From assembly GCA_036676495.1 (NCBI GenBank), contig JAKFCT010000044.1, positions 1 to 12,544 on the forward strand: a stretch of 12,544 nucleotides of DNA, written 5' to 3'. Positions 1 through 9,807 of the stretch are shown in pieces. The notes under the pieces were generated by a model. It was not told the origin of the DNA. It made no database searches and worked only from the letters and a program-made list of their open reading frames with translations. A program made the position numbers and the translations under genes. Origin of the DNA: Candidatus Sericytochromatia bacterium. Lineage in GTDB: Bacteria; Cyanobacteriota; Sericytochromatia; S15B-MN24; UBA4093. The number at the start of each line of letters is the position of its first letter. The stretch's first letter is position 1.

Positions 1-51
1 TCTCGACCCCCTCCTTGGCAAGGAGGTGTTCTACCACTGAACTACATCCGC
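1..51 (-). tRNA. tRNA-Gly(GCC), 3' part cut off by window edge
   Basis: Reverse complement reads GCGGATG TA GTTC-AGTGGTA-GAAC A CCTCC-TT GCC AA-GGAGG GGGTC GAGA...: 5' acceptor strand, D-arm, anticodon arm with GCC (plus-strand 17-19) and the start of the T-arm. Confidence 0.95.
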
Positions 52-2797: not shown

Positions 2798-2848
2798 TGA
2801 CTCAACTCGATCGTGCCTTGCGGAACCCCTGGAAAGGGCGGTGAGTCC

Positions 2849-3490
2849 TTGTTAGGTCAAGCGCCCCAGCGCTCGAGACTCCTCCTGGTCGACAGCGATG
2901 CCAAGGAGCGCGAGTACCTGCGGACCTGGCTTCACGGATCGGGCTACGAGGTTCATGCGGTGGGGAGCGGGGCCGATGCGATGGTGCGGCTACGCCACCA
3001 TGCGATCGAGGTGGTCCTCACCCATTTGCGCCTGCCGGGTCTGAACGGGATCGAGCTGCTTTCCCTCGTGAAGGAATGGGATCCCCGGATCGAGGTCATC
3101 ATCCTCAGCAACTCGTGCACGGTCGAGGACACCCTCGGAGCGTTGCGGGGACGGGCGTTTGACTTCCTTCAAACTCCGCTTTCCGACCTTCAGGCCCTCA
3201 ACCGGGCGATCGCCGGGGCCTTGCTCCAGCGGTGTCTCGGTAACAGTGCCGCGCGTCCCCTTCCCGTCCGGTTGCCGCCCCGGCCGGCCGAGGAGTTGAC
3301 GCCCCGCGAAAAGCAGATCCTTTCCCTGCTGGCGCAGGGCTTGGAGAACAAGGCGATCGCAAACCACTTGTGCCTGGGTGAGAAGACGGTGCGAAACCTC
3401 CTCAGCGGCATCTATGCCAAGCTCGGGGTGGTGAACCGGACTCAGGCGGTCCTTCACTATCAGCAGCGGGCCTGGCCGCAGTCCCTCTGA
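2849..3490 (+). CDS. NarL/LuxR-family response regulator with atypical (pseudo-)receiver domain
   Basis: Receiver-fold pattern (LLLVDSD...GYEV...VVLTHLRLPGLNGIELL...AFDFLQTP) plus LuxR HTH (LTPREKQILSLLAQGLENKAIANHLCLGEKTVRNLLSGIYAKLGVVNRTQAV). TTG 2849 follows GGTGA and gives 213 aa; GTG 2813 is an alternative start. Confidence 0.88.
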   Translation: MLGQAPQRSRLLLVDSDAKEREYLRTWLHGSGYEVHAVGSGADAMVRLRHHAIEVVLTHLRLPGLNGIELLSLVKEWDPRIEVIILSNSCTVEDTLGALRGRAFDFLQTPLSDLQALNRAIAGALLQRCLGNSAARPLPVRLPPRPAEELTPREKQILSLLAQGLENKAIANHLCLGEKTVRNLLSGIYAKLGVVNRTQAVLHYQQRAWPQSL

Positions 3491-3495
3491 ACGTC

Positions 3496-4014
3496 ATGAA
3501 CAGGAGTCAGGGCCACGTGTCCACGTACCGTGATTTGGGGGAAATCTCAGAGCTGCTGGGAGTGAGCCCCACCAAGCTTCGCCGCTGGATCGATCGGCTC
3601 GAGATCGTGCCGGCCGTCCGGGTGGCCCATGGCCGTCACCTCTTCGATGACTTGTCGGTCCAGCTCCTGCAGGGCATCAAGGAGCACCTGGATGCCGGCT
3701 GGGAGCTGAGCAAGCTGGTCCGCATGTTCGGCTCCAGCTCCGGTCAGCGGCTCGCCGCTCCCCCCGAGCTCCCGCTTGCCGAGGGGGGAGGAAGTCGCCC
3801 TCCCCTGCACGACGAGCTTCGCGCCTTGCATCAGCGGCTGGATCAGCTCTTCGAGGAAGTGGCCGGCGTTCGCCGCGAAGTGGCCCAGCGCGAGACCGAA
3901 TACCAAGCCTTGATGGAAGCGCTGGCTCGAATGGCTACGGCCATGTCGGTCAACACGGCGATGCTCGAACAGCTCGACGAGCGCCTTCCGTCCGTCCTCT
4001 TGCGCCGCAACTAA
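3496..4014 (+). CDS. MerR-type HTH DNA-binding protein with C-terminal coiled coil (RacA-like architecture)
   Basis: LGEISELLGVSPTKLRRWI...GRHLFDD...LQGIKEHLDAGW is a MerR-type winged HTH; then a Pro/Gly linker and a heptad-rich LHDELRALHQRLDQLFEEV... segment. Starts 5 nt after the regulator stop codon. Confidence 0.8.
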   Translation: MNRSQGHVSTYRDLGEISELLGVSPTKLRRWIDRLEIVPAVRVAHGRHLFDDLSVQLLQGIKEHLDAGWELSKLVRMFGSSSGQRLAAPPELPLAEGGGSRPPLHDELRALHQRLDQLFEEVAGVRREVAQRETEYQALMEALARMATAMSVNTAMLEQLDERLPSVLLRRN

Positions 4015-4203
4015 CTCCGGGCCGGATCCTTTCTGTTTCCACGCCCCGCAGCCCCTCTCCCGACCCCAGGCGCAAACGCCGTTTCTACGGGCCCGCAAGG
4101 GAAGTGATGGGATCTCGGGACGCAAGCTTGACGCCGGAACGTCGATAACTCGGTACGAGGTTAAGCTAGCTTTAAGCCGATGACGAAGCTGAGGAGGGAC
4201 GGG

Positions 4204-5316
4204 ATGATGCGTCGACGGGGAAGATCCGGGCTCGGGCTGATTCTGGCACTGGCACTCACGGGTTGCGGCCAAGGGGCTCTCGTTGCTCCTCAGTCCTCCG
4301 AGGAGCTTTTCGCCGGCTCCGGGATGACGGATCGCTTGCTCGGCCTCGTCAATGGACAGGCGCGCAAAGGCTTCGACGCCTACGATCGGGACCGCGACGG
4401 CCAGGTCAGTCGAGCAGACGTCCCCTTTCTCTTCCCGAAGACCTTCGAGCGCCTCGACAAGAACGGCGACGGCTTCCTCACGTATTCGGAAGCCAGGCCC
4501 GAATCCTTCCGCCTCACGGCCTCGGTATCGCAGCTCGCTCGCATGCTGACCTCCACCTTCAAGCTTCTGGATCTCGATTCCGACGGCTTGCTCGATTCCC
4601 GAGAGCTTGCCTTGCGCGAGGGGCTCGCCGAGGCTGCCTCCGAGCGGCCTCTCACCCCGGAGACCTTCCTGACCGCTCTGGAGGGGGAGCAGCGGGCCAT
4701 GGATGCCCTGCCGGCACCCGACGTCAAGGGCAAGAATCCCATCCTGATGGTGCCCGGCTTCTTCCTGCCGGCCTTCATCTGGGTGGACATGCGCAAGGAC
4801 CTTTCCAAGGAGGGCTGGAAGCAGTTCTACACCATGGAGCACTGGCCGGGTTTCGACGATATCCGCGAGTACGCGGCCGAGGCCAAGCTCCATGTCGACC
4901 GGATCCGGCGCGAGACCGGTGCGCGGCAGGTCGAGTACTTCGGCCACAGCATGGGCGGCCTGGTCGGGCGCTACATGATCAAGAACCTCGGTGCCGAGAA
5001 GGACGTCGCCCACTACGTGGCCTTCGGCACTCCGCAGCATGGCACGGTCATGGCCCATCCCTTCAACTGGCTGATCACGTCCAATGCGCAGATGAGCCGG
5101 GACAGCGCCTTCATCCGCGAGCTCAACGCCGGAGACGAGACGCCTGGACCGGTGAAGTACACCATGATCCGCGGTGGGCTCGACGAGATCAGCATCCCCA
5201 ACGACACGGCCGTCCTGGAGGGCGCCGAGAACCACTACATCCCGCGCGCCATGCACCTGCACCTGGTCTTCCATCCCGACGCGCAGCGCATCGCCATTGA
5301 CGCCCTGAAAAAATGA
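4204..5316 (+). CDS. Lipoprotein with EF-hand domain fused to an alpha/beta-hydrolase (lipase/esterase)
   Basis: SD GAGGAGG (4191-4197) before ATG 4204. Basic n-region, hydrophobic h-region and lipobox LTGC (Cys 4264-4266). Three DxDxDG-type loops. NPILMVPG, GHSMGG nucleophile elbow (4942-4959), candidate Asp (GGLDE) and His (AMHLHL). Confidence 0.88.
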   Translation: MMRRRGRSGLGLILALALTGCGQGALVAPQSSEELFAGSGMTDRLLGLVNGQARKGFDAYDRDRDGQVSRADVPFLFPKTFERLDKNGDGFLTYSEARPESFRLTASVSQLARMLTSTFKLLDLDSDGLLDSRELALREGLAEAASERPLTPETFLTALEGEQRAMDALPAPDVKGKNPILMVPGFFLPAFIWVDMRKDLSKEGWKQFYTMEHWPGFDDIREYAAEAKLHVDRIRRETGARQVEYFGHSMGGLVGRYMIKNLGAEKDVAHYVAFGTPQHGTVMAHPFNWLITSNAQMSRDSAFIRELNAGDETPGPVKYTMIRGGLDEISIPNDTAVLEGAENHYIPRAMHLHLVFHPDAQRIAIDALKK

Positions 5317-5350
5317 GACGAGGGGGAGCCGCGGCTCCCCCTCGTCCTTT
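5317..5350. terminator. bidirectional terminator hairpin between convergent genes
   Basis: Perfect 30-bp palindrome GACGAGGGGGAGCCG/CGGCTCCCCCTCGTC (5317-5346), with CTTT on the right and AAAAAA shortly to the left. Confidence 0.75.
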
Positions 5351-5361
5351 AGAACGGGTCG

Positions 5362-6711
5362 CTAGGCCAGGGTCTTCAGCGCCTGGGCGAATTCCTGGGC
5401 CGACGCGAAGCGGTTGGCGGGCAGGGGCTGCATCGCCTTGGCGATCGTCATGCTCAGCTCCTTGGGCAGGTCCGGCACCAGCGAGGCGGCCTCGGGGTTC
5501 GGCGACTGCGAGAGGAAGCTCTCGGGCTTGCGCTTGGTGATCAGGTGGTAAAGGGTCGCGCCCAGCCCGTAGACGTCCGAGCGGGGATCGGCCCCCGACG
5601 AGTTGGTGAACAGTTCCGGGGCGGCATACGCCGGATCCCGGCCGTGAATCACCTCGGTGAACACGATGGACGGGTCGCCTTCGATCCGGGCCGCCGAGAA
5701 GTTGGTGATCTTGACGCCCTGGCCCGTGACGCGCAGGGAGGCCGGCGTGAGGTTGCGGTGGACGATCGGCGGGGCCGAGCGATGCGCCGTGTCGATGCCT
5801 TCGGCGGCCTGGGCCACGAACCGGACCGCCTCTTGCCAGGACAGTTCATCCAGCTTGTCGGCCAGGTTCCAGCCTTCCACCCACTCGGAGATCACGTAGA
5901 TGTTTCCCTGATCCTCGAGCACGTCGAGCACGGAAACGATGTTGGGGTGCTGAAGGCGTGCGGTCGCCCGCGCCTCGCGAATCGCGCGGTTCTTCCACAT
6001 GGCGAGCTTGTCCGGGGGCTGGTTGACGTCGGAAGACAGCTTCTTGATGAAGACCAGCTTGCCCGTGAGGTTGTTCTCCGCCTTGTAGGAGATGCTGCGA
6101 GCCGAGCTCTTGAGGGTCGAAAGCACCTTGTAGTTTTCGAAGGGCAGGTACTCCTCGACGGCCAGGGACTTGCCGACCAGGTGCTGGGCCATCTCCTTGA
6201 GCTGCTTGTCGGTGGCTTCGGCGGGAAGCTTGGAGGCATGCTCCTGGATCACCGGCAGCAGGCGCTCCAGCGCCACCAGCTCGATATCCGTCGGGTTCTC
6301 GACTTCCATCGGGGTGTAAGGCGGAACCACCACCAGGGCCTGGGTGCGGAGCTTGCCCATCAGCCCGGAGTTCCAGCGCGAGAGAATGGTGTTGAGGGTC
6401 TTCGCCTTCATCTCCGAGCGCTGAAGCGGGTTCTCGATCTGGTGGGGAGGGTTGCCCTCCCGGTAGACCACCCAGTTCTTCTGGTTGACGTGACCCTTGA
6501 TCTCACCCTGCCAGTACTTGGTCTCGATGGCGTAGACCGCATGGCGCGTGAGCAGGATGATGTCGATTTCGATGTTGCTCTGCTTGTGGTAGAAGCCCGG
6601 CAGCACCACGTTGGTGAGCAGCAGGGTGTCGTCCGGCAAATGCCCGAGCGTGCGCGCGACGGTCTTTTCGAACTCGTTGACGGGGTTTCCCGCGACGATG
6701 ATCTGGGCCAT
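5362..6711 (-). CDS. NERD nuclease domain fused to a Hanks-type pseudokinase (449 aa)
   Basis: N-terminal EFEK...NVVLP...EIDIILL...YAIETKYWQG...NPLQ is a NERD (PD-(D/E)xK) pattern. C-terminal kinase fold (VFIK, IREA, LQHPNIV, YAAPE, SDVYGLG) has HRNLTPAS and NFS in place of HRDLKPxN and DFG. SD AAAGGAGA upstream. Confidence 0.88.
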   Translation of the reverse strand: MAQIIVAGNPVNEFEKTVARTLGHLPDDTLLLTNVVLPGFYHKQSNIEIDIILLTRHAVYAIETKYWQGEIKGHVNQKNWVVYREGNPPHQIENPLQRSEMKAKTLNTILSRWNSGLMGKLRTQALVVVPPYTPMEVENPTDIELVALERLLPVIQEHASKLPAEATDKQLKEMAQHLVGKSLAVEEYLPFENYKVLSTLKSSARSISYKAENNLTGKLVFIKKLSSDVNQPPDKLAMWKNRAIREARATARLQHPNIVSVLDVLEDQGNIYVISEWVEGWNLADKLDELSWQEAVRFVAQAAEGIDTAHRSAPPIVHRNLTPASLRVTGQGVKITNFSAARIEGDPSIVFTEVIHGRDPAYAAPELFTNSSGADPRSDVYGLGATLYHLITKRKPESFLSQSPNPEAASLVPDLPKELSMTIAKAMQPLPANRFASAQEFAQALKTLA

Positions 6712-6807
6712 GAGAGGGCCTCTCCTTTCGGGGTCGAATCTCTTCTTAATCTACCCCGAACGGACGCTTCCTACCCAAAAGCGCGTGGATCGTCGTTTTC
6801 GAGGTCC

Positions 6808-8469
6808 TCAGGACCCCGACGGGCTAACACTCGCCTGCATGCGATGCCAGATGCGCGAGAGCGCCTCCTTCAGGCTGAGGGCATCAGTGTAGCGGCTGGA
6901 GGGCAGCTCCTCGAAGGCGCGGCGAATGGTGCGGTTGAGTTCGTCGAGCCATTCGGGCGTGGCCGTGATCCCGTGCCGGTCCAGGAAGAGGCGCACCGCA
7001 GGGCTATCCGGGCCGATGGGGCGGAACTGCTCGGCGGGGATCAGGCCGAACGTGCGCGGGCCCAGCCAGGGCTCGGTGGGGAGTGCGCCGGTAATCAGGC
7101 GGTAGAGGGTGAGTCCGAGCGAATAGAGGTCGGAAGGGGGCTTGGCTTGGTTGGGAGCCGCGAACTGCTCGGGGGCCATGTAGGTGAAGGTGCCGATGGG
7201 GACCCCGGCGTCCAGGGTGAGGTTGCTGGTGCCCATGGCGTTGTTCTTGGCGATGCCGAAGTCCAGCAGCTTGACGCCTCCGCGGCGGGTGAGCATGACG
7301 TTGCTGGGCTTGATGTCGCGGTGGACGATGCCGTCGGAGTGGGAGGCGGCCAGGATGTCGCAGAGGGCGATGCCGATCTCGACGATCTGGTCGAGCGCGA
7401 GGCCGTCTCCTCCCTCTTCGAGGTTCTTGCCGTCGATCCACTCGGTGACCAGGGTGTTGGGCTCCAGGTAGTCGAAGACCTTCACGACCCCGTCATGGAC
7501 GTTGGAGAGGGCGATCAGGCTCTGGACTTCCTTGTGGAAGCGCGAGCGGGCCATGTCCGAGTGGGCTCCGACTCCGGGGTGAACCTGTTTGAGGGCGACC
7601 ATCCGGTTGAGCTTGGTGTCGGTGGCGGCGTAGAGGATCGAGTGGAGCGAGGAGCCGACGACGCGTTCGACCCGGTACTGCCCGATCATCTCGCCGGCCG
7701 CGTGGATGCGGTGACCTTCCGGGGCGTAGGCCACGGGGCCGGTCTGAAGCGCGCCGGCGGTGCCGCGGGCGGGAGGGGCGATCGCCACCTCTTGCTCCGG
7801 CTTGGCTTTCGCTTCCTTGCGCATCATCCAGAGGGCCCATCCCCCGCTGAGGGAGCCGACTCCGGCGACGAGGCCGAGGGCGATCGCCCAGGGGTTGGAG
7901 CGTTGCGGCGGGGAGGGAGGAAGGGAGGACTCTTCGCTACTTTGGGGGCGCGAGCGGATCTGGAGGATCAGGTCCGTGGCGGCGAGGCGCACGGCGGGAT
8001 CGCGAAGCATGGCCTCCTCGCAGACGGCGATGGCTGCGGCTTCGCGTCCGCTCGCCACCAGGATCTGGGCGACCGGAAGGTAGACCCAGCCGTTCTCCGG
8101 CCATGCCTTGATGGCCTTGTTGCCGCTGGCGATCGCCAGGTCCCAGCGCTTCTGCTGGGCCTGGATGGAGGCGATGCGCAGGTAGAGGTCGGGCTGCTGG
8201 TGGCGTTCGGCCGTCTTCGCGATGGCCTCGAGCATGGTGACGGCTTCGTCCCATTTTCCGGCCATGGCCAGGGCGTTGGCCTTGGAGAGGTCCTCGGATC
8301 CCAGGGGGGAGGCGGGGTCGAGTGGAGCCAGGGCGGCTGAGGGGGGATTTCCCTGGGGGGCGGCCGGGCCGGGGGCTTGCATGGACTGAGCGCTGGCGAG
8401 CCCACCCAGGAGGGGAGCGGCAAGCGCCAGCGCGATCAGGTTCAAGCGGAAGCTACCAGCAGGTCTCAA
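6808..8469 (-). CDS. Membrane receptor-type Ser/Thr protein kinase with exported TPR-like domain (553 aa)
   Basis: Signal peptide (LIALALAAPLLGGLASA-Q), TPR-like helices (GKWDEAV..., KRWDLAIASGNKAIKAWPEN..., GREAAAIAVCEEAMLRDP), TM helix PWAIALGLVAGVGSLSGGWALWMM followed by basic RKEAKAK, then a kinase with VALK, HRDIKPSN, DFG, GTFTYMAPE, SDLYSLG. TTG start is uncertain. Confidence 0.9.
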   Translation of the reverse strand: MRPAGSFRLNLIALALAAPLLGGLASAQSMQAPGPAAPQGNPPSAALAPLDPASPLGSEDLSKANALAMAGKWDEAVTMLEAIAKTAERHQQPDLYLRIASIQAQQKRWDLAIASGNKAIKAWPENGWVYLPVAQILVASGREAAAIAVCEEAMLRDPAVRLAATDLILQIRSRPQSSEESSLPPSPPQRSNPWAIALGLVAGVGSLSGGWALWMMRKEAKAKPEQEVAIAPPARGTAGALQTGPVAYAPEGHRIHAAGEMIGQYRVERVVGSSLHSILYAATDTKLNRMVALKQVHPGVGAHSDMARSRFHKEVQSLIALSNVHDGVVKVFDYLEPNTLVTEWIDGKNLEEGGDGLALDQIVEIGIALCDILAASHSDGIVHRDIKPSNVMLTRRGGVKLLDFGIAKNNAMGTSNLTLDAGVPIGTFTYMAPEQFAAPNQAKPPSDLYSLGLTLYRLITGALPTEPWLGPRTFGLIPAEQFRPIGPDSPAVRLFLDRHGITATPEWLDELNRTIRRAFEELPSSRYTDALSLKEALSRIWHRMQASVSPSGS

Positions 8470-8510
8470 TGGTCACCACCAACGACTCGGGAGGCGGAAG
8501 GCCGTCCTTC

Positions 8511-8539
8511 ATTGTACCCCAACAAACCCGACTCCTGAA
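8511..8539 (-). promoter_or_regulatory. putative sigma70 promoter for the kinase pair
   Basis: Minus strand TTCAGG (8539-8534), 17-nt spacer, TACAAT (8516-8511), about 40 nt upstream of the kinase start. Confidence 0.5.
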
Positions 8540-8578
8540 AACCGGCGAGGCGCCTTGGGGCGCGCCACGGGCGCCTCG
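8537..8578 (-). terminator. possible terminator downstream of the methyltransferase
   Basis: 9-bp inverted repeat CGAGGCGCC (8546-8554) / GGCGCCTCG (8570-8578), followed on the minus strand by CCGGTTTTC. The U-tract is short and offset. Confidence 0.35.
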
Positions 8579-8702
8579 AGGCGGCCGGCCCCCCGGGGCA
8601 TGCCGGCTGGAGGGGCGTCCTGCGCGGATCTCGGCGGGGAGGTCGGGGCGCGGCGTAGACCGGGCGAGCGATGTTTAAGAATCCTTACCGCCCGCCGGAG
8701 GC

Positions 8703-9458
8703 TCAGACGTGCATGGGGCGTGCCAGGTAGGCCACGCGGTAGGTGGTGGGGACGGGCTCGCGCTCGGTGAGGCATTCGTAGGCGGCCACGACTTCCATGC
8801 CGGCACGCTCCAGGAGGGTTTCGACCTGCTCGGGGGAGTAGCCGCGGTGGCGGTGGACCTCTTCGACCCGGCGGTAGCGGCCGTCTGCTTCGCGCTCGAA
8901 GAAGAGCGCGTGCAGGGTGCCGACCTCGGAAACCGGATCGTAGGAGGACTTCCAGATGCGGGTGAGGTCGAGGTCGAAGGAGGTGTCGGTGGTCTCTCCC
9001 CAGGTCTGCTCGATGGCATGGTCGGTGATCATGTCGAACAGGAAGAGGCCGTCGTGGCGGAGGTGGGCACGGACCTGGCGGAAACTTTCTTCCAAGTCTT
9101 CGGGAACCAACATGTAGTTCAGGGCGTCATAGAAACATGTGACGGCGTCGAACGGTCCCCCGGCCTGGAAGCGGCGGAGGTCGCCTTGCAGCCAGGTGAC
9201 GGGGGCATTCCAGCGTTCGGCCTTTGCCTTGGCGTTTTCCAGCATGGTCTCGGAGAGGTCGAGGGCGGTGACCTCGTAGCCCCTGCGGGCGAGGGCGATC
9301 GCCGCCGAACCGGTGCCGCAGGCCAGGTCGAGGACCCGCTGGATCCGGTACGGCGCGTGCTGCGCCCAGAGGTAAAAGGCGTAGAGCACCATCCGGAGCG
9401 AGAAACGGCTCTGTCCGGTTCGGTCGTAAAGAGAGGCGTACGCGTCGTAAAGGGCCAT
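8703..9458 (-). CDS. Class I SAM-dependent methyltransferase (YqeM-like)
   Basis: YDAYASLYD N-terminus, RVLDLACGTG motif I, ALDLSETML, QGDLR, FDAVTCFYDALNY and LRHDGLFLFD. Substrate unknown. Confidence 0.9.
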   Translation of the reverse strand: MALYDAYASLYDRTGQSRFSLRMVLYAFYLWAQHAPYRIQRVLDLACGTGSAAIALARRGYEVTALDLSETMLENAKAKAERWNAPVTWLQGDLRRFQAGGPFDAVTCFYDALNYMLVPEDLEESFRQVRAHLRHDGLFLFDMITDHAIEQTWGETTDTSFDLDLTRIWKSSYDPVSEVGTLHALFFEREADGRYRRVEEVHRHRGYSPEQVETLLERAGMEVVAAYECLTEREPVPTTYRVAYLARPMHV

Positions 9459-9619
9459 CGAGAACAGCTCAAACGAAGGAAGGGGGCGGGGGAACGAGGT
9501 CGGAAGCGGCCGTAAACCCTAGTTTGACTGATATAAAGCCTAGGTTAAGGGTATATAACCACGGTCCTGCGCCCTTTGGGGCGAATTAAAAGAAAATTAA
9601 GCTTAGATGGAAATTTAAC

Positions 9620-9648
9620 TGGATATTTTTCCCTCGATCGCTTACCAT
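9620..9648 (+). promoter_or_regulatory. putative promoter for the sigma factor gene
   Basis: TGGATA (9620-9625), 17-nt spacer, TACCAT (9643-9648), preceded by an AT-rich UP-like tract (AATTAAAAGAAAATTAA) within an AT-rich divergent intergenic region. Confidence 0.45.
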
Positions 9649-9669
9649 AGGAAGTTGCCAAACGATCAT

Positions 9670-9807
9670 GGAACGTTCAGCCATTGCCGCGGCAAACGGC
9701 AGGCTGGGCTCAAGTCGGAGGGGGCGGGATCATTATCCCCCCGGCGGAGAAATTCCGCAAGCCGAGCGAGTCGTTCGTTCCTCTGATTGGCGAATCATCG
9801 AGGAGGT
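9670..9807 (+). promoter_or_regulatory. structured 5' leader with SD-sequestering hairpin
   Basis: Hairpins at 9675-9709, 9726-9739 and 9744-9758. TTCCTCTGATT (9778-9788) pairs with AATCA-tc-GAGGAG (9793-9805), covering the SD. Confidence 0.5.

Follow-up and report, generated by a model that had tools for sequence, protein, structure and literature searches.

A membrane receptor kinase gene paired with a predicted NERD nuclease-pseudokinase gene in an order of non-photosynthetic relatives of cyanobacteria, read as a split form of the PglW-type triad

A block consisting of a NERD domain, a dead kinase and a live kinase recurs in at least three anti-phage systems, represented by PglW, MAD6 and the kinase-fused forms of DndF. 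The N-terminal half of PglW is described as a NERD nuclease domain followed by a pseudokinase without activity and by an active kinase, and the same triad is reported for some DndF proteins (PMC12839542). According to an account of PglW in which its NERD domain is treated as uncharacterised, this domain spans residues 12-130, an atypical kinase residues 195-490 and a Hanks kinase residues 537-704; the lysine of the Hanks kinase is required for defence and the protein is toxic in E. coli (PMC4365076). MAD6 belongs to MADS, which is reported to need MAD6-8 within an eight-gene operon (bioRxiv 10.1101/2023.03.30.534895). The locus considered here lies in a stretch of 12,544 nucleotides (the window; 65% G+C) that represents positions 1 to 12,544 of contig JAKFCT010000044.1 (C44) in the 4.1 Mb, 92%-complete assembly GCA_036676495.1 of Candidatus Sericytochromatia bacterium, an uncultured soil relative of cyanobacteria. 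Two co-oriented open reading frames (ORFs) on the minus strand, separated by 96 bp as given in the original prediction made from the letters of this stretch, encode a receptor Ser/Thr kinase with type-I topology (gene 1, 6808-8469, 553 aa) and a putative cytosolic NERD nuclease-pseudokinase (gene 2, 5362-6711, 449 aa). The best reading of the sequence comparisons is that the pair is a split form of the NERD-pseudokinase-kinase triad of PglW, some DndF proteins and MAD6, and that the two genes constitute one vertically inherited signalling-effector module of one order of non-photosynthetic relatives of cyanobacteria.

Gene 2 is predicted to encode a soluble PD-(D/E)xK (NERD) nuclease fused to a conserved dead kinase. 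The NERD domain (aa 1-180, 6172-6711) is matched by Pfam NERD (PF08378) at aa 12-114 (E 1.3e-16; 61.5 bits against a gathering cut-off of 22.1), the kinase-fold domain (aa 190-449, 5365-6144) is matched by Pfam Pkinase at aa 206-398 (E 8.5e-25), and hydropathy reveals no hydrophobic segment in the protein. Across an alignment of 16 orthologues, residues E15, E48, D50, E63, K65 and K102 of the NERD domain are invariant. The kinase fold reads HRN318-320 and NFS337-339, and in all 16 orthologues the HRD aspartate is replaced by N, G or S and the DFG aspartate by N or G, giving the motifs HR(N/G/S) and (N/G)F(S/G/A/N); the loss of any one of the beta3 Lys, the HRD Asp and the DFG Asp is enough to define a kinase fold as a pseudokinase. 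The beta3 lysine is exchanged for arginine in the three most distant orthologues. APE, R434 and G345-D346-P347 do not vary among the 16, and position 348 is occupied by Ser or Thr throughout. The Pfam matches and this alignment bear out the earlier description of a NERD domain with E-x-D...E-x-K residues fused to a kinase without catalytic function.

Modelling of gene 2 with AlphaFold2 gave a mean predicted local distance difference test score (pLDDT) of 84.9 and a predicted template modelling score (pTM) of 0.58 for the full-length protein, in which the linker at residues 181-187 is of low confidence, and a pLDDT of 89.6 and pTM of 0.87 for the NERD domain alone. In the NERD model strand 47-54 carries D50 and the neighbouring strand 58-64 has E63-x-K65 at its end, as in restriction-endonuclease-like folds, where the catalytic D and (D/E)-x-K occupy adjacent strands. 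Comparison of this model with 48,161 chains by VIA-align placed the nuclease domains of VC1899, Can2 and Cdn1 at the top (Z 9.9-10.1, rmsd 3.0-3.2 Å, 115-125 residues aligned). Among the 50 entries listed, nucleases are in the majority, with Can2/Card1-type effectors, McrC and Hjc as well as numerous restriction enzymes. A Foldseek search of the NERD model against the PDB returned no match at E <= 0.001, the weak rows all being nucleases. In a PDB sequence search with gene 2 the best 60 matches cover just the kinase-like half (aa 183-446), and none of those 60 is a solved NERD-kinase relative.

Gene 1 begins with a signal-like segment (about aa 1-29, 8383-8469), followed by a TPR ectodomain (aa 63-159, 7993-8283; Pfam TPR_19, E 2.9e-08, and TPR_16), a single transmembrane (TM) segment at about aa 193-216 (7822-7893) and a Hanks kinase (aa 265-553, 6811-7677; Pfam Pkinase at aa 265-466, E 1.6e-29), the signal-like and TM segments being assigned by hydropathy. 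Since the TM segment (about aa 195-213 in the hydropathy profile) is followed by RKEAKAK and the kinase is C-terminal, the sensor is predicted to be outside the cell and the kinase inside. Alignment of 12 gene 1 orthologues shows K294, E314, HRD383-385, N390, DFG403-405, APE (P433-E434) and R526 to be invariant, as are T418 and T427 of the activation segment, and the protein thus has the beta3 Lys, alphaC Glu, HRD, catalytic-loop Asn, DFG and APE expected of a Hanks-type kinase. The exported TPR-like domain, TM helix and intact kinase motifs that had been read from the sequence are therefore all recovered. The glycine loop is degenerate (GSSLHS). A further motif, P-x-x-P-W-x-G-P-R at aa 464-472, lies C-terminal to APE, is invariant in the 12 orthologues and may be a docking surface.

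PglW resembles the pair in the order NERD, dead kinase, live Hanks kinase. Against the PglW model (NCBIfam NF033442), gene 2 aligns to positions 48-485, which contain NERD and the first kinase, and the kinase of gene 1 to positions 511-664, in the second kinase. The parallel with PglW drawn in the original prediction is supported. However, PglW is a single chain of 1400-1600 aa that has wHTH and inactive STAND domains in its C-terminal part and works with PglX, PglY and PglZ, whereas the pair divides the triad between proteins of 449 and 553 aa, of which the one with the live kinase also has a signal peptide, a TPR ectodomain and a TM segment. Scores of 108 bits for gene 2 and 42 bits for gene 1 against a cut-off of 990 place neither protein in the PglW family. 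A PglW system with PglX, PglZ and BrxC is not indicated either, as PglZ had no match in the 92%-complete genome (the control matched in 2 of 14 genomes); Pfam and PADLOC found no PglZ in the window, as stated earlier for pgl and brx genes in general. The best-scoring curated family for gene 2 is MAD6 (NCBIfam NF047741), with aa 1-448 collinear with positions 1-460 of the 612 in the model, although the score of 242 bits stays below the cut-off of 460. A mad7 match is absent from the genome, with a control that matched nowhere, and matches to mad8 are generic ATPases on other contigs, none of them on C44. Unlike in MADS, the methyltransferase adjoining the pair is not of the DNA methyltransferase type. 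No description of the split pair was found in the literature on NERD with pseudokinase or on PglW with NERD, a search limited to texts other than supplementary files, which may list such architectures.

The two genes are linked. A search of 5.8 billion proteins with gene 2 yielded 28 full-length relatives of 447-451 aa and 50-97% identity, all carrying NERD plus Pkinase and including Candidatus Sericytochromatia among their source names, after which scores fall sharply to ordinary kinases (E 1e-37, 57% coverage). A word-based search with the NERD region, which is the most conserved part of gene 2 (59-97% identity), retrieved the same 28 orthologue clusters and nothing else. The 'ordinary' kinases nearest to gene 2 (P0029, P0031 and P0040) each have two tandem kinase-like domains. 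Among 41 related genomes, gene 2 orthologues are present in 19 (E <= 2e-105; next best 3e-36), namely 10/10 genomes of family f1 (the window's genome included), 1/1 of f2 and 8/8 of f4, against 0/8 of f3 and 0/14 of f5-f7. Each of the 19 loci has a homologue of gene 1 (37-100% identity) directly upstream on the same strand, with a spacer of 1-103 bp in the 10 other genomes measured. Strong matches of the gene 1 ectodomain (E <= 2.3e-16) are restricted to pair loci, matches elsewhere being weak and TPR-type, although this search missed one pair-bearing genome (G024). In family f3 both genes are jointly absent. The constant adjacency, the short spacers and the restriction of the ectodomain to pair loci together indicate that the pair is a unit. 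The earlier claim that the genes belong together, and its proposed check of whether they stay adjacent across homologues, is upheld by these data and by the congruence of the two gene trees.

A quick IQ-TREE of 78 kinase-domain rows, from which domains covering fewer than 120 profile positions were dropped and loci where ORF picking missed a gene were left out, is divided by a branch with a Shimodaira-Hasegawa-like approximate likelihood ratio test (SH-aLRT) value of 97. On one side are gene 2, the first kinase domains (K1) of tripartite and PglW-size proteins and stand-alone NERD-pseudokinases; on the other are gene 1, the second kinase domains (K2), the kinases of a Phormidium locus described below and other kinases. 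Gene 1 is sister to K2 of tripartite membrane proteins of the same class (SH-aLRT 91), and the subtrees of the two genes agree in their groupings. This tree fits a split triad whose parts were inherited together. The tripartite proteins (about 940 aa, e.g. L020:1474-4290) fuse NERD, K1, K2, a TM segment and an outer domain. Their K2 has all kinase motifs and K1 keeps HRD but reads NFG, while the NERD domain, in contrast to that of gene 2, mostly has E-Y-R instead of E-x-K (9/12 rows). Their ectodomain is C-terminal, whereas that of gene 1 is N-terminal. In several genomes a tripartite protein coexists with the pair. Across the class, the tripartite gene is directly downstream of uvrB in 22/30 loci, with a gap of 10 bp in L020, and in the window's own genus the gene following uvrB is without a NERD part (G000:C80:147972-148874). 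A link of the tandem kinases to excision repair is possible.

RNase L, IRE1 and MLKL are eukaryotic effectors gated by a kinase or pseudokinase fold. They resemble the pair in principle, a (pseudo)kinase fold acting as a switch on a destructive effector, a role that is hypothetical for the pair; the effector domains are non-homologous and the order of domains differs. The interpretation favoured here, with a slightly better than even chance of being right, is that the split triad constitutes a kinase-controlled nuclease module of defence-type descent that is now a core gene pair. In this module a periplasmic cue, sensed by the TPR domain, would activate kinase 1, which would dock on and/or phosphorylate the pseudokinase of gene 2, the candidate phosphosite being the conserved Ser/Thr348 beside the invariant G345-D346-P347 in the activation loop. 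The pseudokinase switch would then license or restrain the NERD nuclease. Abortive defence, programmed death and the processing of DNA under stress to the envelope or after DNA damage are all conceivable as the module's present role. A more specific and rather tentative version, which probably goes too far, is that the periplasmic TPR domain responds to a cue at the envelope, for example phage attack or damage to the wall, and licenses a chromosomal nuclease via the dead-kinase adaptor, making the pair a defence-derived cell-fate switch in the core genome of an entire order and the simplest natural form of the triad.

The modelling of the complex that had been proposed as a check was weakly supportive. 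Kinase 1 (aa 240-553) predicted together with gene 2 reached an ipSAE interface score of 0.42, compared with 0.00 for the best of three controls, a result classed as 'weak support', with the runs agreeing in at least 39% of contacts and a partner pLDDT of at least 77. The ipSAE mark is reached by 58 of 80 solved complexes and by 2 of 110 mismatches, but with a value of 0.60 or less it is reached by just 7 of the 80 solved complexes and by both mismatches. Several observations weigh against the kinase-controlled nuclease. The predicted complex scores weakly, and pairs of kinases may owe such a score to solved dimers known to the predictor. The placement of the two domains of gene 2 relative to each other is uncertain (pTM 0.58). 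The sister relation of gene 1 to K2 has an SH-aLRT of 91 from a quick search without bootstraps and, because the ectodomains of gene 1 and the tripartite paralogue are at opposite ends, simple gene fission is not enough to explain the pair. The functional study of the NERD protein SmdA, moreover, deals with cell morphology and not with nuclease action, although SmdA is without several conserved NERD residues (PMC9040797).

The surroundings of the pair are those of a core locus. In 12 wider loci the gene order is nadE and a sigma-70 gene, then, divergent from these, an S-adenosylmethionine (SAM) methyltransferase gene, gene 1 and gene 2, and finally prmC and prfA, with prmC and prfA at varying distances from gene 2. 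The methyltransferase gene is found in 11/12 of these loci, the sigma gene in 10/12 and prmC in 8/12, and loci cut by a contig end account for most of the absences, among them all three that concern the methyltransferase and sigma genes. The pair is single-copy at one syntenic site with housekeeping genes on either side in three families, and NERD is matched just once in the genome to which the window belongs. Neither Pfam nor PADLOC gave defence neighbours of the pair in the window. A gene of a mobile defence island would be patchy, variable in position and next to defence or mobile genes, a description that does not apply to the pair. Owing to this stable housekeeping synteny and to its presence in 19/19 genomes of three families, the locus is not regarded as a defence island, and the anticipated nearness to defence islands gives way to a fixed site between sigma-70/nadE and prmC/prfA. 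PADLOC also matches PD-T4-6, Stk2 and MkoA, but with the same models for both genes, and these matches were therefore discounted as generic to kinases.

More distant relatives of gene 2 present a different picture. When 1.84 billion representatives were searched with a NERD profile, 6810 proteins matched at E <= 0.001 and 408 at E <= 1e-10. The matches at E <= 1e-30 number eight and consist of the orthologue cluster, a 174-aa protein, the class of about 940 aa and one form of 659 aa. Of ten more distant matches checked, seven consist of NERD plus Pkinase alone (442-501 aa) and are named 'NERD domain-containing protein kinase family protein' by NCBI. These stand-alone NERD-pseudokinases of other lineages share the two-domain layout of gene 2 at 22-28% identity; E15, D50, E63, K65 and K102 are common to all seven and the catalytic Asp is replaced in 6/7. 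An Anaerolineae metagenome-assembled genome and Phormidium tenue are the sources of two of them. The one independent stand-alone locus read, that of Phormidium tenue, offers a further case of such a protein next to separate kinases: behind its NERD-pseudokinase gene (22% identity) come a PP2C gene and two genes for kinases whose motifs are intact, with an HTH-M78 peptidase gene before the NERD-pseudokinase and an IS4/5 transposase gene beyond the two kinases. The complete cassette (L098:1521-11842) comprises a QueC-like gene, the HTH-M78 peptidase, the NERD-pseudokinase, PP2C, the two kinases and the transposase. Unlike gene 1, its partner kinases are without the TPR receptor layout (by Pfam) and have the PP2C gene beside them. 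An orthologue of this NERD-pseudokinase occurs in 1/81 genomes of that order, and four others have forms of 1395-1615 aa. The cassette may represent an undescribed phospho-signalling defence cassette. At another cyanobacterial locus a NERD-kinase-kinase gene follows DndB-like and HNH genes. Judged by these neighbourhoods, the NERD-pseudokinase family is accessory and defence-like elsewhere and fixed in this order and, since the relatives of gene 2 are found in patchy, defence-like contexts, a defence origin of the module is likely.

These two sets of observations bear on whether the pair is still a dedicated anti-phage abortive system, in which the TPR domain would sense perturbation of the envelope by phage and the nuclease would destroy phage or host DNA. 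All named relatives of the NERD-pseudokinase block (PglW, MAD6 and DndF) are defence proteins, the distant stand-alone relatives are patchy, as in the Phormidium order, and lie beside the HTH-M78 peptidase and IS4/5 transposase genes or the DndB-like and HNH genes, and PglW is reported to be toxic in E. coli (PMC4365076). However, in three families no sampled genome lacks the pair, which sets it apart from mobile defence islands, and it sits in single copy at the same sigma-70/nadE to prmC/prfA site in all wider loci. Its NERD domain is the most conserved part of gene 2 and not fast-evolving, the PADLOC matches are of generic kinase or methyltransferase type, and the genome has no match to PglZ or, with the control as given above, to mad7. 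A present-day anti-phage function is consequently viewed as a serious but doubtful alternative. Of the defence reading offered at the outset, what survives is the defence-like context of the distant relatives, while the core, single-copy and syntenic state of the pair and its lack of defence neighbours speak against it.

The core-like distribution and housekeeping synteny would suit a different function, in which NERD, instead of acting as a regulated DNase, is a DNA- or protein-binding scaffold in housekeeping signalling (that of the cell envelope, of division or of DNA repair) and the pseudokinase simply serves kinase 1 as an adaptor. The action of SmdA in cell morphology (PMC9040797) and the position of the tripartite paralogue downstream of uvrB, with a NERD domain that mostly reads E-Y-R, point in the same direction. 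Nevertheless, the persistence of E15, D50, E63, K65 and K102 even in relatives of 22-28% identity is as expected of an active enzyme, and a scaffold function is considered unlikely. That the two genes are neighbours without any shared function is highly improbable. Hanks kinases are numerous in these genomes (7-41 matches each) and a separate conserved -10-like element precedes gene 1 only, yet the adjacency holds in 19/19 genomes at identities down to 50% and 37%, spacers shrink to 1 bp, the genes are jointly lost or absent in f3, their subtrees are congruent, and their division into K1 and K2 types mirrors the fused triads. The kinase-controlled nuclease module of defence-type descent accordingly remains the favoured interpretation.

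In the pair, the block shared by the anti-phage proteins is split into two small proteins with a separate, extracellular input domain and none of the other system components. With two small proteins in place of a chain of 1400 aa, in vitro tests of phosphorylation, docking and nuclease control become much simpler, and the pair could serve as a minimal system in which to learn how the triad works. Being fixed and syntenic in one order, the pair also exemplifies the retention of a module of defence type in the core genome.

The gene calls and transcription signals are consistent with this organisation. The G+C content at third codon positions (GC3) of genes 1 and 2 is 0.87-0.91, like that of prfA and the sigma gene, whereas a plus-strand ORF of 931 aa antisense to both genes (5545-8340) has the mirror composition (G+C at first positions 0.88, GC3 0.65). 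On this basis the minus-strand frames are taken as the real ones and the plus-strand frame was rejected as a high-GC shadow ORF. The 96-bp spacer from the stop of gene 1 to the start of gene 2 (6712-6807) includes AAGGAG at 6722-6727, 10 nt ahead of the gene 2 ATG, and the spacer lengths are consistent with putative co-transcription of the two genes. Downstream of gene 2, the terminator previously noted is confirmed as a strong intrinsic hairpin at 5316-5347 on the minus strand with a 14-bp stem (10 G-C pairs), a loop of 4 and a T run; it also abuts the stop (5316) of a convergent lipase-like gene. The candidate promoter of gene 1 (8511-8540, minus strand) has a -10-like TACAAT at 8511-8516 and a weak -35-like TTTCAG. 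Its earlier proposal stands in part: a consensus scan of 5000-9800 called no sigma-70-type sites, while TACAAT and the leader downstream of it are nearly identical in a genome of the same genus (G001), the sequence further upstream having diverged with a large indel, which gives weak conservation support from a comparison of two sequences.

Upstream of gene 1 and on the same strand, the neighbouring gene (8703-9458, minus strand) encodes a class I SAM methyltransferase of 251 aa (Methyltransf_25, E 6.3e-23). The best NCBIfam match of this protein is a methyltransferase of daptide-type ribosomally synthesised and post-translationally modified peptides (88 bits against a cut-off of 175), and its translation contains no NPPY/DPPY motif. 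A PADLOC match to mad2 covers the generic SAM-binding core only. The gap between the methyltransferase gene and gene 1 is 16 bp in family f4, and the methyltransferase gene lies beside the sigma gene in 3/3 f3 genomes without the pair. A role as third component was rejected as unproven, the gene being kept beside the sigma gene in pair-less f3 and of a small-molecule or peptide type; it is probably a conserved neighbour outside the module. At the edge of the window, Rfam assigns positions 1-51 (minus strand) to a tRNA that the window boundary truncates to its 5' part (36.7 bits) and reports nothing else in the window, and ARAGORN calls no tRNA there. The region between gene 2 and prmC (2813-5316) contains genes for a LuxR-type response regulator (2813-3490), a MerR-family protein (3496-4014) and a lipoprotein-like protein with EF-hand and alpha/beta-hydrolase parts (4180-5316). 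In G001, prmC follows gene 2 within about 110 bp, and the block at 2813-5316 is therefore interpreted as a variable insertion.

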